Shown here: positions 2,994-36,952 of the stretch, one piece after another | How positions within the stretch are numbered: position 1 is the first letter of the stretch | Layout: each line of letters begins with the position of its first letter | Source: Escherichia coli | GTDB lineage: Bacteria; Pseudomonadota; Gammaproteobacteria; Enterobacterales; Enterobacteriaceae | Assembly (NCBI RefSeq): GCF_016903815.1 | Contig: NZ_CP069973.1 | Length of the DNA: 64,000 nt | Reading direction: 5' to 3' (one strand) | Translations under genes and position numbers: made by a program | The notes under the pieces: generated by a model | Database searches by the model: none | What the model was told of the DNA's origin: nothing | What the model saw: the letters and a program-made list of their open reading frames with translations, nothing else

Positions 2994-5156
2994 TTATTTC
3001 GCATCCGACTTATATTCGTATTCGTAATAGCCATAATCCTGATACGCGCTGGCGCGGCGGAAGATGGAGTTCAGAATCACCCCTTTCACCGGAATACCGT
3101 TTTGCTCAAAGCGGCTCAGACTGGTTTCCACTTCTTTCAATGTGTTGACCGCATAACGCGCCACCATTAACGTGGTTCCAACATGACGACCAACAATTGC
3201 CGCATCGGTCACTGCCAGAATCGGCGGCGTATCAATCAACACCAGGTCGTAGTTTTTACTCGCCCAGTTCACCAGTTCGGCAAAGCGTTCGCTCATCAAC
3301 AGTTCAGAAGGATTTGGCGGTACCTGACCGCGCGGGATCAGGTCAAATTTGGCAATAGAGGTCGGTTTAGCAGCGGTAGTAATATCGCCCTGACCAATCA
3401 GAATTTCCGACAGGCCATTGACGTTATTGGTACCCAACAGCTCGTGGGTGTAGCCTTTGCGCATATCGCAGTCGATCAACAACACCCGTTTATTGGTCTG
3501 ACTGATCACCGCCGCCAGGTTGGCGCAGACAAAGGTTTTACCGATTGACGGGCTAACCCCTGTCATCATCAACACATTGTTCTGCGCCTGCATCATCGCG
3601 AAGTGCAAACTGGTACGCAGACTACGGATGGCTTCAATCGCCAGATCGGTTGGATTCCCCACCGCCAGTAGCTGGCTCTGTTTATAGCGTTTAATCCCTT
3701 TGATGGTTTTGACGCTATCGCGCGCTTTTTGCCATTCCGACAGCGGGATGCTGGCATAGACGCTGATACCGTGTTCTTCCAGTACTTGCGGGCTTTCGAT
3801 GCCGCGATTAAACAACGAGCGCAGCAGCACACCCACGATAGAAAGCATCAGGCCGAGGATAATCGCGCCGAGGATAATCAGCCCTTTCTTCGGTTTTAAC
3901 ACGCCAGGCTGGGTGATTGCCGGGTCAACAATGCGCACATCGCCGACGGTACTGGCTTCGGTGATTTTCAGCTCCTGCTCTTTATTCAGCAGTTGCATAT
4001 AGACCTGCTGCCCAGACTCGACATCGCGGGTCAGACGGACAATCTCCTGCTGGGTTTTCGGCATCGCCGTTACGCGACCGTTAAGTTTGGCTTTATCTTC
4101 TTCCAGCGCCTGACGTTTCTCCAGCAGCGTGCGGTACGCCGGGTGAACTTTGGTGTACAGCTTGGAGATTTCCGCCTCTTTAAAGGTCAGTTCGTTCAAC
4201 TGCGCGTCGATGTTCACCATCGAATCGAGCACCGCTTTCGCTTCCAGCGGCAGATCAACAGAATCTTTATCCTGACGGAAGGCATTCAGTTTGTTTTCGG
4301 CAACATCAAGGCGGCTACGTACTTCCGGTAACTGTTGCGCGAGGAAGGCGAGGCTTTTCGACGCTTCCGCCGATTTGCGCTCAATATTTTGTTCCTGATA
4401 GTTACGAGCGATGCTGTTAAGAATGTCGCGGATCTGTTCGCGATCTTCACCGGTATAAGTCAGGCTCAGTACGCCTGCGTCTTTGCCGTTCTCCGTTACC
4501 GTCAGGCTGTTTTGCAGTTGATTGATCATCCCCAGCGTGGAGTATTTGGTGACGGTAAACTCACTGCCCGGGCGGGCGTGAATGGCTTCAACCATCAGCG
4601 TGACGCCTTCTTTTTTCAGTATCTGGCCCGCTTGCCCACGGGCGCTAAAGCCGCCATCGCTGCTCAGAGTGTAGTTTTTATCGTCCAGCACATTAAGCGT
4701 AAACACCTGATCCGCCATCTCTTTCGGGCGGTTAAAGGTAGTCACTTTTACCGTCTCGTTCTGACGCCCCATCAGGCGATCCCAGCCCGCACCGAAAATC
4801 GGGAACGTGTTTTTGCTCACCGCAATATCGAGGTCGAGATCGTCCACCGTTTTACCAAGCACCAGGCGCGAACGAATCAACTGGATCTCGGCATCCGATG
4901 CTGGCGGTTTGTTGGCTAATGCCGATCCGATATCCTGCACCAGCGAATTGCCGCTGCTTTGTTCGATTTGTACCAGTGCGTCGGCGCTGTATATCGGCGT
5001 GGCGAAGAAGGTGTAAACCACGGCACAGAGGGCGAATACGGCGGTGATGCCAATTACCCACCAGCGCGCTTCAATGACGGTGCCGACCAGGCGACCAATA
5101 TCGATTTCATCACTGCCCGTTACCGGAGCGGCATGTTGTTTTACTTTTTCTGTCAT
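2994..5156 (-). CDS. wzc: Tyrosine autokinase Wzc (capsular polysaccharide co-polymerase)
   Basis: ORF track gives 732 aa; internal start MTEKVKQHAAPVTG... gives 720 aa. Walker A (GVSPSIGKT) and C-terminal Tyr-rich tail YGYYEYEYKSDAK. Confidence 0.9.
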   Translation of the reverse strand: MTEKVKQHAAPVTGSDEIDIGRLVGTVIEARWWVIGITAVFALCAVVYTFFATPIYSADALVQIEQSSGNSLVQDIGSALANKPPASDAEIQLIRSRLVLGKTVDDLDLDIAVSKNTFPIFGAGWDRLMGRQNETVKVTTFNRPKEMADQVFTLNVLDDKNYTLSSDGGFSARGQAGQILKKEGVTLMVEAIHARPGSEFTVTKYSTLGMINQLQNSLTVTENGKDAGVLSLTYTGEDREQIRDILNSIARNYQEQNIERKSAEASKSLAFLAQQLPEVRSRLDVAENKLNAFRQDKDSVDLPLEAKAVLDSMVNIDAQLNELTFKEAEISKLYTKVHPAYRTLLEKRQALEEDKAKLNGRVTAMPKTQQEIVRLTRDVESGQQVYMQLLNKEQELKITEASTVGDVRIVDPAITQPGVLKPKKGLIILGAIILGLMLSIVGVLLRSLFNRGIESPQVLEEHGISVYASIPLSEWQKARDSVKTIKGIKRYKQSQLLAVGNPTDLAIEAIRSLRTSLHFAMMQAQNNVLMMTGVSPSIGKTFVCANLAAVISQTNKRVLLIDCDMRKGYTHELLGTNNVNGLSEILIGQGDITTAAKPTSIAKFDLIPRGQVPPNPSELLMSERFAELVNWASKNYDLVLIDTPPILAVTDAAIVGRHVGTTLMVARYAVNTLKEVETSLSRFEQNGIPVKGVILNSIFRRASAYQDYGYYEYEYKSDAK

Positions 5157-5607: not shown

Positions 5608-6747
5608 TTACCAGTTATGAATGTCGCTGGCTGTATCCGTCATGTAACGGACACCGCTAATAGTTGGCAGCAACTGATTGATCAGACGGTTCCAGCGGGA
5701 AACCGGGGCGGTGGTGACATACACCACGTCATAAGGTTGCAGGCGGAATTCTGTCGCCATCACCAGCGACGTCGCATCGGACATATCCAGCTGGTAGATA
5801 TTGGCAATCTTGCCGTTACGCCCGCCCTCGCCTTTCAGCGGACGAATGACAAAGATGCCGCTGGCGTTGGAGGTGGTCATGTCGATACCTTCGGCATTGC
5901 CCAGGGCTTCAGTCAGGGTCATGCCGCTAAAGTCCATTTTCAGGGTGCTCTGTTTCTTCACTTCACCCATCACAAACACTTTCAGATCATCATTACGCGG
6001 CACGTAGAGAATATCGCCGGGGTAAAGCAGTCGGTTCTGATTGAGGTCGCCGTTTTGCATCAGCGCCTGCAAAGAAATGCGTTCTTCACGACCATTGTGT
6101 GTTAGCACCACGTTGCGCCAGTCAGCGGTGTCGGTCAGGCCACCTGCGGCGTTGATGGCGTCGAGAATGGTCAGTGGTACGTTGGTGATCGCCTGTTGAC
6201 CGGATTTATTCACCTGACCTGAGATATAGGCCTTTTGCGAGCGGAAGGCGGCGATATTAACATCCACCTGCGGGTCAGCGATGTACGTCGCTAAGCGCCC
6301 GGTAATATCACTGCGGATTTCAGCGAGCGTTTTCCCGACTACGTGGACCTTGCCGATATACGGGTAAAACATAGTGCCGTCAGGCTGTACCCAGTTGCCG
6401 GTGTCGCTGGAGCTGCGGTACTGACCGGCTGGCGTGGTGAGTTCCGGGTGATCCCAGACGGTGACATTCAGAACGTCGCCCGGCCCGACGCGATACTGGT
6501 AATTCGCGATCTCACTTTCCAGCGTCATATTGGGGCGCGCTACATTCGGGCGTGGGCGTAATTGGTCAATCAGGCGCGGGGTCAGCGGATAAACATTCAC
6601 CATTTTGTCGAGATCGAAATCAGCGTCCTGCTGTTTGATGACGTCTTTGCCCATCGTCGACATATTGCTGCCCGGAAGTACTGTGCAACCGCTTATCAAG
6701 GTTACTGACACCAATAATGGCATCAATTTCATTTTGGATTTCATCAT
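5608..6747 (-). CDS. wza: Outer-membrane polysaccharide export lipoprotein Wza
   Basis: 379-aa ORF; signal peptide with lipobox LISGC; synteny with wzb/wzc. Confidence 0.9.
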
Positions 6748-6926
6748 TGTTTATTTATCACTTTGGCAGAGTAATTATCCTGTGCACTATTAATAGCAAT
6801 GTCGCCATGCACATTTACCTTGCAGTTAATTGAATAAAAATTTAACTGGCATCAGTCCTAAAAAAATTGATTTCATCCGCAGGCTATTGACAGAATAATT
6901 CAGACTGGTCTTTCAGGCATCCAGAC

Positions 6927-6937
6927 ACGCTACCGCC
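6927..6937 (-). promoter_or_regulatory. ops element (GGCGGTAGCGT) within JUMPStart leader of the colanic acid operon, RfaH antitermination site
   Basis: Exact reverse complement acgctaccgcc found in the long 5' leader upstream of wza. Confidence 0.7.
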
Positions 6938-7405
6938 CCTGGCTTTTTAGCTACCAATACACTGATTTAGCTTAATTTTTAAAACCCTCTCAACATACAG
7001 TCGTTGATGAGAAAGGGTTATTGCGGAAATTAACTTCCGAATATAAGGTGACATTATGGTAATTGAATATTGGCTCTCCAATAATGCAGGAGGAAGTGTT
7101 ACAGCTAACGGAATAGCAGGCAAGGTAACAATTCGGTAATTGGCTATTTTTAAGAATTATATTAAGTGTCATTCAATATGGTTTTTAGGAGTTTCTTTAG
7201 GTTGACAATATTTAATATTGCGCCTCCACATGCGATATTTCTTAAATAATGTTTTATTATTACCACTTTTAATTCAGGGATAATGTGAGGTTATTACCCT
7301 CAAATAATATGAGATAAATAGTGCTGCAACATTGCATTTTTGCCCCGATTTATCCATGATCGAATTGTGACATTTGTCATACAACGAATAGGTTTTGTAC
7401 TTACT

Positions 7406-8989
7406 ATGGAATGGATTGCCGATCCGTCTATCTGGGCCGGGTTAATCACGCTGATTGTGATCGAACTGGTCCTCGGCATTGATAACCTGGTCTTTATTGC
7501 CATCCTCGCCGAAAAACTACCGCCGAAGCAGCGCGACCGCGCACGGGTTACCGGGCTGCTGCTGGCGATGTTAATGCGCCTGTTACTGCTGGCGTCAATC
7601 TCCTGGCTGGTCACCCTGACGCAACCGCTGTTCAGCTTCCGCTCGTTTACCTTTAGCGCCCGCGACTTAATCATGCTGTTTGGTGGTTTCTTCCTGCTGT
7701 TCAAAGCCACGATGGAGCTGAACGAACGGCTGGAGGGGAAAGACAGCAATAACCCCACGCAACGCAAAGGTGCGAAGTTCTGGGGGGTGGTGACACAAAT
7801 TGTGGTACTGGACGCCATCTTCTCACTCGACTCGGTGATTACCGCCGTCGGGATGGTCGACCATTTACTGGTCATGATGGCCGCCGTGGTTATCGCTATC
7901 AGCCTGATGTTGATGGCCAGCAAGCCGTTAACGCAATTTGTTAACAGTCACCCGACCATCGTTATTCTCTGCTTAAGCTTCCTGTTGATGATTGGCTTTA
8001 GCCTGGTGGCAGAAGGTTTCGGCTTCGTCATTCCGAAAGGCTACCTGTACGCTGCCATTGGTTTCTCGGTGATGATCGAGGCGCTCAATCAGTTGGCTAT
8101 CTTTAACCGTCGACGTTTTCTTTCCGCTAACCAGACACTGCGCCAGCGGACTACCGAAGCGGTAATGCGCCTGCTTAGCGGGCAAAAAGAAGATGCGGAA
8201 CTGGACGCCGAAACCGCGTCCATGCTGGTGGATCATGGTAACCAGCAGATCTTTAATCCGCAGGAACGGCGGATGATTGAGCGGGTACTTAATCTTAATC
8301 AGCGTACCGTCAGCAGCATTATGACGTCGCGCCACGATATTGAGCATATCGATCTCAACGCGCCGGAAGAAGAAATCCGCCAGTTGCTGGAGCGAAATCA
8401 GCATACGCGGGTGGTGGTTACCGACGGTGATGACGCAGAAGATTTGCTCGGTGTTGTTCACGTTATCGACCTGCTACAACAGTCTCTGCGCGGCGAACCG
8501 CTCAACCTGCGGGTGTTGATTCGCCAGCCGCTGGTGTTCCCGGAAACCTTGCCGTTGTTACCTGCCCTGGAGCAGTTCCGTAATGCCCGCACGCACTTTG
8601 CTTTTGTAGTGGATGAGTTTGGCTCGGTGGAAGGGATTGTGACATTAAGTGACGTCACTGAAACCATTGCCGGTAACTTACCGAACGAAGTGGAAGAGAT
8701 CGACGCCCGCCATGATATTCAGAAAAATGCGGACGGTTCCTGGACGGCGAATGGTCATATGCCGCTGGAGGATCTGGTGCAATATGTGCCGCTGCCGCTG
8801 GATGAAAAACGTGAATATCACACCATTGCCGGGCTATTGATGGAATATTTGCAGCGTATTCCAAAACCTGGCGAAGAAGTTCAGGTGGGGGATTATTTGC
8901 TTAAAACGTTGCAGGTGGAAAGCCATCGCGTGCAGAAGGTGCAGATTATTCCGCTGCATAAGGATGGCGAGTTGGAGTACGAGGTGTGA
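7406..8989 (+). CDS. yegH: Inner membrane protein YegH (TerC-like membrane domain plus CBS/CorC-type domains)
   Basis: ORF track 549 aa; internal start [13 protein letters not shown] gives 527 aa; multi-TM N-terminus and soluble C-terminal region. Confidence 0.85.
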
Positions 8990-22562: not shown

Positions 22563-22744
22563 AAGAAATCCTTTCTTAGAGAATTATTGAGGTCCGGTAT
22601 CATACCGACTGCAACAATGAAATATGAGCAGGCAAAGCAACTTTCAGAATTAGGCCCGGCGGCGCAGAAAATTTTGCTATTCGCCTCGCAAGAACGGAGA
22701 GCCGTCGATTGACACTAAGGGCGGAGTGACATAATTTCAGGAGT

Positions 22745-22890
22745 GAGGGTTAGGGAGAGGTTTCCCCCTCCCCCTGGTGTTCTTAGTAAGCCTGGAAGCT
22801 AATCACTAAGAGTATCACCAGTATGATGACGTGCTTCATCATAACCCTTTCCTTATTAAAAGCCCTCTTCTCCGGGAGAGGGTTTCCCGT
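22745..22890 (+). ncRNA. sibA: Sib antisense sRNA, copy 1 (approximate ends)
   Basis: Antisense to the ibs ORF; ends in a GC hairpin plus T-rich tract (ccctcttctccgggagaggg tttcccgttt). Boundaries estimated. Confidence 0.45.
22783..22842 (-). CDS. ibsA: Ibs type I toxin peptide, copy 1 (MMKHVIILVILLVISFQAY)
   Basis: Minus-strand 19-codon ORF encoding a hydrophobic Ibs-family peptide inside tandem repeat unit 1. Confidence 0.75.
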   Translation of the reverse strand: MMKHVIILVILLVISFQAY

Positions 22891-23079
22891 TTCAGCGTCC
22901 CGCTGAAATCGTCGGCTTACCTCCTTTCGCCCTGAATGCAGTCTATCGCTAACGCGTGAACAAAATAGTTTCCTCTGTGATTATTGCGTAACGACTCGCA
23001 AAGAATATTTGCTGGCAGGATCGCAGACTGCAAAGCCTGCAGATTGACAATCTTATCGTGAAGGCATAATTTCAGGAGT

Positions 23080-23225
23080 GAGGGTAGAGCGGGGTTTCCC
23101 CCGCCCTGGTAGTCTTAGTAAGCGGGGAAGCTTATGACTAAGAGCACCACGATGATGAGTAGCTTCATCATGACCCTTTCCTTATTTAAGGCCCCTTCCT
23201 CGGGAGGGGCTTTCCCGTTTCAGCG
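23080..23225 (+). ncRNA. sibB: Sib antisense sRNA, copy 2 (approximate ends)
   Basis: Antisense to ibs copy 2 with a matching terminator hairpin; boundaries estimated. Confidence 0.45.
23115..23171 (-). CDS. ibsB: Ibs type I toxin peptide, copy 2 (MMKLLIIVVLLVISFPAY)
   Basis: Minus-strand ORF encoding an Ibs-family peptide inside repeat unit 2. Confidence 0.75.
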   Translation of the reverse strand: MMKLLIIVVLLVISFPAY

Positions 23226-23404
23226 TCCCGCTGAAATCGTCGACTTACCTCCTTTCGCCCTGTATGCAGTCTATCGCTGACTTGCGGATAAAATAGTTTC
23301 CAGTGTGATTATTGCGTAACGTCTCGCAAAGAATATTTGCTGGCAGGATCGCAGACTGCAAAGCCTGCAGATTGACAATCTTATCGTGAAGGCATACTTT
23401 CAGG

Positions 23405-23552
23405 AGTGAGGGTAGAGCGGGGTTTCCCCCGCCCTGGTAGTCTTAGTATGCTGGGTAGCTAATCACTAAGAGCACCACGATGATGATCCACTTCATCATG
23501 ACCCTTTCCTTATTTAAGGCCCCTTCCTCGGGAGGGGCTTTCCCGTTTCAGC
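23405..23552 (+). ncRNA. Sib antisense sRNA, copy 3 (approximate ends)
   Basis: Antisense to ibs copy 3 with the same terminator-like hairpin; boundaries estimated. Confidence 0.4.
23443..23499 (-). CDS. Ibs type I toxin peptide, copy 3 (MMKWIIIVVLLVISYPAY)
   Basis: Third Ibs-family ORF in a third tandem repeat unit (period about 330 bp). Confidence 0.7.
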   Translation of the reverse strand: MMKWIIIVVLLVISYPAY

Positions 23553-36831: not shown

Positions 36832-36865
36832 TACAGCTGCATTTATTAAGGTTATCATCTGTTTC

Positions 36866-36952
36866 GCTGAAAAACATAACCCATAAAATGCTAGCTGTAC
36901 CAGGAACCACCTCCTTAGCCTGTGTAATCTCCCTTACACGGGCTTATTTTTT
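36866..36952 (+). ncRNA. cyaR: CyaR (RyeE) Hfq-dependent sRNA
   Basis: gctgaaaaacataacccataaaatgctagctgtaccaggaaccacctccttagcctgtgtaatctcccttacacgggcttatttttt matches the remembered CyaR sequence, including terminator hairpin and U-tract. Confidence 0.85.
36926..36952. other. P2 attachment core (27 nt), host/prophage junction overlapping the cyaR terminator
   Basis: aatctcccttacacgggcttatttttt is the reverse complement of the P2 att core AAAAAATAAGCCCGTGTAAGGGAGATT as recalled; ogr begins about 100 bp further on. Confidence 0.7.

Follow-up and report, generated by a model that had tools for sequence, protein, structure and literature searches.

Anatomy of the wza leader and its JUMPstart/ops element in the divergent wza-yegH region of an Escherichia coli strain

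The promoter region of the Escherichia coli K-12 cps (wza) operon was reportedly described by Stout in 1996 and by Wehland and Bernhard in 2000, and the latter authors are also said to have observed binding of RcsA-RcsB at the wza promoter and its requirement for induction. Transcription of the wca genes involves RfaH-dependent antitermination at the JUMPstart element as well as activation by RcsA/RcsB (PMC9976346). RfaH is recruited to the ops element in the non-template strand of a paused RNA polymerase, suppresses further pausing and excludes NusG and hence Rho, and it additionally brings in ribosomes and counteracts silencing by filaments of H-NS/StpA (PMC9765446, PMC5995543). The ops consensus GGCGGTAGnnTG contains the essential bases G4, G5, A7, and G8, the C3:G8 pair which forms the hairpin of the non-template strand, T6, and the dinucleotide T11-G12 which sets the pause (PMC5995543). 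In the mutagenesis study of Zuber et al. (2018), changes of G4, G5, A7, or G8 abolished RfaH recruitment, and those of C3 or T6 reduced it (PMC5995543). For the wza operon itself, Hustmyer et al. detected an RfaH ChIP signal at GGCGGTAGCGTG, at -190 from wza, in a ΔhnsΔstpA derivative of strain CFT073, which was lost in a ΔrfaH background (PMC9765446). The wza promoter is bound by H-NS and silent in wild-type CFT073, RfaH is detected at wza only after removal of H-NS and StpA, and wza-wcaM has been termed a cryptic RfaH-regulated locus (PMC9765446).

The 64-kb stretch of E. coli chromosome analysed here (the window) contains a wza upstream region which had been predicted to consist of a long AT-rich leader with an intact ops element. 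The finding itself adds little new, as the strain carries the standard Rcs/RfaH-controlled regulatory region of colanic acid synthesis; among the gains are a leader anatomy corrected to a predicted length of about 340 nt, and promoter and operator blocks placed by phylogenetic footprinting.

The wza-yegH interval and the predicted extent of the wza leader

The interval 6748-7405 represents the entire 658-bp intergenic region between the divergent genes wza and yegH (Table 1), and its GC content of 34.7% (0.347, compared with 0.538 for wza and 0.532 for yegH) bears out the predicted AT-richness. The wza gene is the first one of the colanic acid (cps/wca) operon and is followed by wzb and wzc on the same strand, and we are highly confident that the interval constitutes a divergent control region separating yegH from the colanic acid capsule operon wza-wzb-wzc-wca.

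Table 1. Features of the wza-yegH interval and the flanking genes (positions within the window).
Feature	Position	Strand	Remarks
wza	5608..6747	-	From ORF list; coordinates and products as for K-12 b2062 and strain A15
Leader block 3, GCACAGGATAATTACTCTGCCAAAGTGATAAATAAACA	6748..6785	-	Abuts the start codon; mean identity 0.93
Leader block 2, TTTTTTTAGGACTGATGCCAGTTAAATTT	6838..6866	-	Mean identity 0.86
Leader block 1, AATTATTCTGTCAATAGCC...	6872..6900	-	Mean identity to the window 0.81, 72 species
ops element, GGCGGTAGCGTG (12-mer)	6937..6926	-	Site of pausing and RfaH recruitment; without a second exact copy in the window
JUMPstart (39 nt)	6964..6926	-	Rfam RF01707; stem-loop of 5 bp (UUGGU/GCCAG), ops at the 3' end
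Putative wza leader (5' untranslated region of about 340 nt)	6748..7087	-	5' end deduced, +/- a few nt
Putative -10, AACACT	7100..7095	-	Block TTAGCTG(T/C)AACA(A/C)T (near-)invariant in 79 species
Putative -35, TTGCCT	7123..7118	-	CCTTGCCTG kept in nearly all 79 species; 17 nt upstream of -10
Proximal RcsAB-box-like site, TAAGAATTATATTA (read on + strand)	7151..7164		Centred at about -70 from the putative start
Distal block, TTGTCAAC..TAAAGAAACTCCTAAAAA	7182..7208	-	Per-column conservation 0.9-1.0
Second box-like 14-mer, TAAAGAAACTCCTA	7199..7186	-	Within the distal block; centred at about -105
yegH (TerC-family membrane protein)	7406..8989	+	K-12 and A15 annotation; ATG at 7406

For phylogenetic footprinting, the GTDB species genomes were scanned with Wza, which yielded 80 loci, and the 700 bp upstream of wza were aligned for 79 enterobacterial species from more than 20 genera, including Escherichia, Salmonella, Citrobacter, Enterobacter, Kosakonia, Lelliottia, Phytobacter, Cedecea, and Buttiauxella. 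A conserved block at 7125..7092 on the minus strand, CCTTGCCTG-N9-TTAGCTGTAACACTTCC, contains the hexamers TTGCCT and AACACT; the second one reads AACAAT in most genera, and is preceded in E. coli by a TGn motif at 7103..7101. The stretch that follows, between about 7085 and 6970, is poorly conserved, and strong conservation is found again from JUMPstart onwards. As judged from the position and conservation of these blocks, wza appears fairly likely to be transcribed from a weak, activator-dependent sigma-70 promoter at 7123..7095 with a start near 7087, which would place ops at about +151. The hexamers TTGCCT/AACACT are not accepted by a generic promoter scan, and for the minus strand this consensus scan returned a single sigma-70-like match, which consists of TGGAGA (7080..7075) and CATAAT (7058..7053) at a spacing of 16 nt. 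A promoter at this site would start at about 7046, which shortens the leader to about 300 nt and moves ops to about +110, and would put the distal and proximal box-like sites near -145 and -110, respectively. However, the respective stretch is among the least conserved ones of the alignment (per-column identity mostly 0.1-0.4), both hexamers are missing in other genera, and the single site found by the scan compares with 3.7 sites in shuffled sequences, i.e., fewer than expected. Because of this lack of conservation, TGGAGA/CATAAT was ranked second and is considered rather improbable as the main promoter.

Since the conserved promoter blocks are located in the middle of the interval and point to a start near 7087, the leader should comprise about 340 nt instead of 658 nt. 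A leader covering the whole interval, as put forward in the original prediction, would have to start beside or within yegH, and has the uniform AT-richness of the interval in its favor, but nothing else; with promoter-like and RcsAB-box-like conserved blocks sitting mid-interval and yegH running divergently from 7406 with a conserved upstream block of its own, the probability of such an arrangement appears negligible. What stands of that prediction is the location of ops within an untranslated leader, whereas the remaining about 320 bp are assigned to the operator blocks with their RcsAB-box-like sites and to control sequences of yegH. Under either of the two candidate promoters, ops would fall inside the transcript, so that the observation named as a refutation of the original prediction, an ops element outside the mapped transcript, was not made.

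The two conserved blocks upstream of the putative promoter are regarded as candidate RcsAB operators on the basis of their conservation and position, not of a motif score. The proximal one is conserved as CTTAATAT(A/T)A(A/T)TCTTAAAA across genera in nearly all 79 species and reads CTTAATATAATTCTTAAAAA on the wza sense strand (7166..7147). Its box-like site TAAGAATTATATTA deviates by one mismatch from the RcsB pattern TN(G/A)GAN4TC(T/C)NA quoted in PMC7913699, and is identical in 11 of 14 positions to the RcsAB box TAAGATTATTCTCA of Klebsiella galF (PMC3438125). The 14-mer of the distal block fits the RcsB pattern only with its TCCTA half-site, and one TC(C/T)TA half-site is found in each of the two blocks.

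Between the putative start and JUMPstart, a hairpin AACCCUUUCUCA...UGAGAGGGUU is present at 7019..6983 on the minus strand, in a region unconserved outside E. coli. Flanking substitutions provide it with a UUUU tail in this strain, compared with UGUG in K-12, and it might cause some weak attenuation, differing between strains, before RfaH is loaded. An attenuator of the intrinsic-terminator type was rejected for this hairpin, as its tail is limited to UUUU, it precedes ops, and other species do not conserve it. Terminator-like sites were absent from the entire region 6600-7500, including any attenuator composed of a GC-rich hairpin and a U tract.

At the far end of the interval, the conservation profile shows the block upstream of yegH at 7330-7390, which is predicted to hold the promoter and 5' region belonging to yegH. 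Its conservation across genera equals that of the wza promoter blocks, and a CRP-like palindrome (TGTGA-N6-TCATA) is located at 7366-7381 on the plus strand, 25-40 nt before the yegH ATG; this yegH-proximal block with its palindrome could represent an operator or a 5'-UTR element of yegH. A 49-aa "hypothetical protein" (WP_162829205.1) is annotated by RefSeq/PGAP at 7056-7205 on the plus strand in many E. coli genomes. It was rejected as a gene, as its frame contains a TAA at codon 28 here and runs antisense across the putative wza promoter, and it probably represents a spurious gene call. Elsewhere in the window, three tandem copies of SIB RNA (RF00113, 139-150 bits) are encoded on the plus strand at 22709-22857, 23044-23186, and 23372-23514. 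K-12 contains two SIB copies at the same locus (sibA/sibB), and the strain analysed here probably harbors an extra ibs/sib type I toxin-antitoxin unit relative to K-12. A gene for the sRNA CyaR/RyeE is found at 36864-36949 on the plus strand (100.7 bits).

The JUMPstart/ops element and its probable role in RfaH control

The 11-mer GGCGGTAGCGT is present in the 64-kb window as a single exact copy at 6927-6937 on the minus strand, compared with a chance expectation of about 0.008 exact ops copies, and the 12-mer at 6937..6926 carries every consensus base listed for ops in PMC5995543. While the original prediction gave no strand, the element is located on the sense (non-template) strand of wza, 190 nt before the ATG. 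The surrounding sequence matches the JUMPstart family RF01707 over model positions 1-38 of 38 with 57.3 bits, well above the gathering threshold of 35 bits, and with an E value of 1.6e-10 when the whole window is searched. The exact single 12-mer and the full Rfam match indicate that the ops/JUMPstart element is real and far above chance, in agreement with its predicted presence upstream of wza. If one mismatch to the 11-mer is allowed, six matches are obtained in the window vs 1.16 expected ones, but the five inexact copies (at 4361, 18334, 29585, 33751, and 36544) are each located within a long ORF and probably reflect strings of the codons GGC-GGT-AGC rather than regulatory sites. No RfaH recruitment to ops-like sites in coding regions was observed by ChIP (PMC9765446). 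The ops element of wza is not covered by any ORF of at least 450 nt and follows the conserved promoter blocks on the same strand as wza. We infer that it is transcribed as part of the wza leader, which is supported by the RfaH ChIP signal of CFT073 at a site identical to the present one in ops sequence and in its distance of -190.

An alignment with the K-12 upstream region had been proposed as a check of the prediction, and the wza-yegH interval of MG1655 indeed turned out to be of the same length and 98% identical over the 658 bp. All 12 substitutions are located upstream of JUMPstart, and the sequence from JUMPstart to the wza ATG is 100% identical. The complete interval is 100% identical to that of strain 7/2, and a search of 5426 complete E. 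coli genomes gave matches to it in 4831. A 71-mer spanning JUMPstart is found in 4817 of the 5426 genomes (about 89%), being 100% identical in 3808 of them; the other 609 genomes are without a match to the wza JUMPstart 71-mer. With such a distribution of the 71-mer, an intact leader is the default state in E. coli. The statement that an intact RfaH/ops leader is present in this strain is correct, but conveys little information: JUMPstart/ops is an ordinary allele of a textbook element here and belongs to already known biology.

A view on the other species shows that in 74 of the 79, covering more than 20 genera, the distance from JUMPstart/ops to the wza ATG is 186-199 nt. In an alignment of 73 species, the ops bases G1, C3, G4, G5, T6, A7, G8, C9, and T11 show no variation at all, conservation amounts to at least 90% for G2 and G12, and position 10 is freely variable. 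The natural variation thus coincides base for base with the ops positions which were identified as essential by mutagenesis. A few exceptions were recorded. Pseudescherichia vulneris and two relatives (L036, L037, and L040) have kept the promoter blocks and the proximal leader, and an unrelated sequence has replaced JUMPstart/ops at about 200-330 nt upstream of wza. As these three species keep promoter and wza without ops, the element is not indispensable for keeping the operon. Citrobacter sp. On2M carries a G2 to A exchange in ops, and C. amalonaticus S646 contains a leader insertion of about 118 bp, which looks like an ERIC repeat.

These losses bear on the view that the wza ops is cryptic or vestigial and has no normal physiological role, expression being set by H-NS silencing and Rcs activation alone. 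The absence of JUMPstart from three species and the G2A exchange in one would be in line with such a view, as would the detection of an RfaH ChIP signal at wza only in ΔhnsΔstpA cells. On the other hand, the bases read by RfaH are invariant over more than 20 genera, indicating ongoing selection, and the 71-mer is unchanged in the 3808 E. coli genomes mentioned above. Moreover, a study by Navasa et al. from 2014, cited by Hustmyer et al., is by its title concerned with the transcriptional control of colanic acid synthesis by RfaH in E. coli K92. A vestigial ops thus seems very unlikely, and the element very probably fulfills its described role in RfaH control of the wza operon.

The sequence, strand, and position of the element, its Rfam match and conservation, and the lack of a Shine-Dalgarno sequence before wza are shown by the present analysis, and they can be combined with RfaH binding and its mechanism, as known from the literature, to the following scheme. 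Rcs-activated initiation at the weak sigma-70 promoter would start near 7087 and lead to a leader of about 340 nt, and RNA polymerase would encounter JUMPstart about 150 nt into this leader, ending in the ops 12-mer. The enzyme would pause there at T11/G12, with a hairpin of the non-template strand (C3:G8) presenting G5 and T6, and RfaH would bind to this ops hairpin and replace NusG. Over the about 20 kb of the operon, the RfaH-modified polymerase should then be resistant to pausing, to termination by Rho, and to silencing by H-NS/StpA, and RfaH may finally bring a ribosome to the wza gene, for which no GGAG, GAGG, AGGA, or AAGG motif was found in the 25 nt before the ATG. Such a start without Shine-Dalgarno sequence fits the model of ribosome recruitment by RfaH via S10.

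Alternatively, JUMPstart may act mainly as an RNA stem-loop of the nascent transcript, serving, for example, as a protein-binding or processing signal, with the DNA ops element being only a part of the story. The Rfam family indeed describes JUMPstart as a cis-regulatory RNA whose stem is conserved. Pairing of this stem is seen in 99.5% of the cells in the 73 species, and conservation of the 25 nt preceding ops equals that of ops. However, covariation is thin, with a double change in only one of the five stem pairs, and ops on the non-template DNA strand suffices for RfaH recruitment (PMC5995543). We regard a predominant function as RNA as unlikely compared with the recruitment of RfaH by the ops DNA.

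Conserved leader blocks downstream of ops

The segment of about 190 nt between ops and the wza ATG is nearly constant in length over more than 20 genera and contains the three conserved leader blocks listed in Table 1. The third codon positions of wza show an identity of 0.585 in the same species, which places the post-ops blocks far above neutral sites, and JUMPstart itself shows one of 0.88. The conservation of block 3 even extends into the first about 10 codons of wza. Much of the segment also accompanies JUMPstart and wza in a paralogous cluster: a second wza copy of Kosakonia oryziphila (L073, 2230-2500) is preceded by a JUMPstart with the ops sequence GGCGGTAGCATA and by much of the post-ops leader, and its upstream and promoter region is wholly different and without the Rcs-like blocks. 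Judging from this case, wza appears to be mobile as one unit with JUMPstart and the leader.

Several conventional explanations for this conservation were tried and rejected. For an upstream ORF of 8 codons (MPVKFLFN*, 6852..6826), the start codon is without its G in 19 of 73 species (26%), where it mostly reads ATA, and the leader peptide is not conserved beyond MPV. A hairpin CAGTTAA/TTAACTG of 7-10 bp (6848..6823) is paired in 79% of the cases, shows few compensatory changes, and is absent from the RNAalifold prediction, which is limited to the JUMPstart stem and a short stem across ops and shows none between ops and ATG. The z-score of -0.97 for leader folding likewise gives no strong fold signal. 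At E<=1, Rfam returned JUMPstart and one sub-threshold match to a miRNA family, taken as chance, and no riboswitch-like RNA. A long-range pairing of the sequence U7-AGGA with wza codons 4-8 is disrupted in Salmonella and in Cedecea/Buttiauxella with no compensatory changes, as judged by eye from the alignment, and pairing of the sRNA RprA with the translation-initiation region is no better than that of a shuffled sRNA. Of the GGA motifs that might bind CsrA, two are present about 80 nt apart, neither of them over the start region; neither is kept in the paralogous copy of K. oryziphila (CACAGGA to CACAAGA and AGGA to CAGA), and Salmonella has CAGA at the first motif. Inspection of the conserved blocks by eye revealed no convincing match to an internal sigma-70 promoter, an IHF site, or a Fur-like site.

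The ops-to-ATG segment may tentatively be viewed as a conserved cis-acting module that is new to the literature and acts after RfaH loading, although this is put forward here as a possibility of rather low probability. Such a module could be involved in Shine-Dalgarno-independent ribosome loading on wza or in binding a post-transcriptional regulator. The conserved post-ops blocks provide a defined target for studying the handover from RfaH-bound polymerase to the ribosome on genes without Shine-Dalgarno sequence.

Comparison with described RcsAB- and RfaH-controlled systems

The locus and its length are the same as those of the K-12 cps (wza) promoter region attributed to Stout (1996) and to Wehland and Bernhard (2000), and the coordinates given here were derived independently of these studies. 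In a comparison with the described RcsAB box operators (galF of Klebsiella, rcsA, amsG, and tviA), the candidate operators of wza resemble these by a conserved pseudo-palindrome at about -70 from the putative start, one half-site of which (TAAGA/TCTTA) is perfect, and by a second half-site, TCCTA, at about -105. They differ from these operators with respect to the 14-bp consensus core TaAGaatatTCctA, to which no match within three mismatches was found in the interval, both candidate sites showing four.

Other RfaH-controlled operons (waaQ, rfb, hly, kps, and tra; RF01707) share the 39-nt JUMPstart with its stem-loop, from which the wza element is not distinguished by any feature of its own, and the 12-nt ops sequence GGCGGTAGCGTG of waaQ, wzx, and tssH in CFT073 is identical to that of wza. 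Common features are also the location on the non-template strand within an untranslated leader, the long operon for envelope polysaccharides, and a first gene without Shine-Dalgarno sequence. The distance of 190 nt between ops and wza is larger than those of wzx (71 nt) and kpsM (40 nt), and smaller than that of hlyC (634 nt). Unlike waaQ and rfb, the wza operon is silenced at the level of initiation under laboratory conditions, which renders its occupancy by RfaH conditional.
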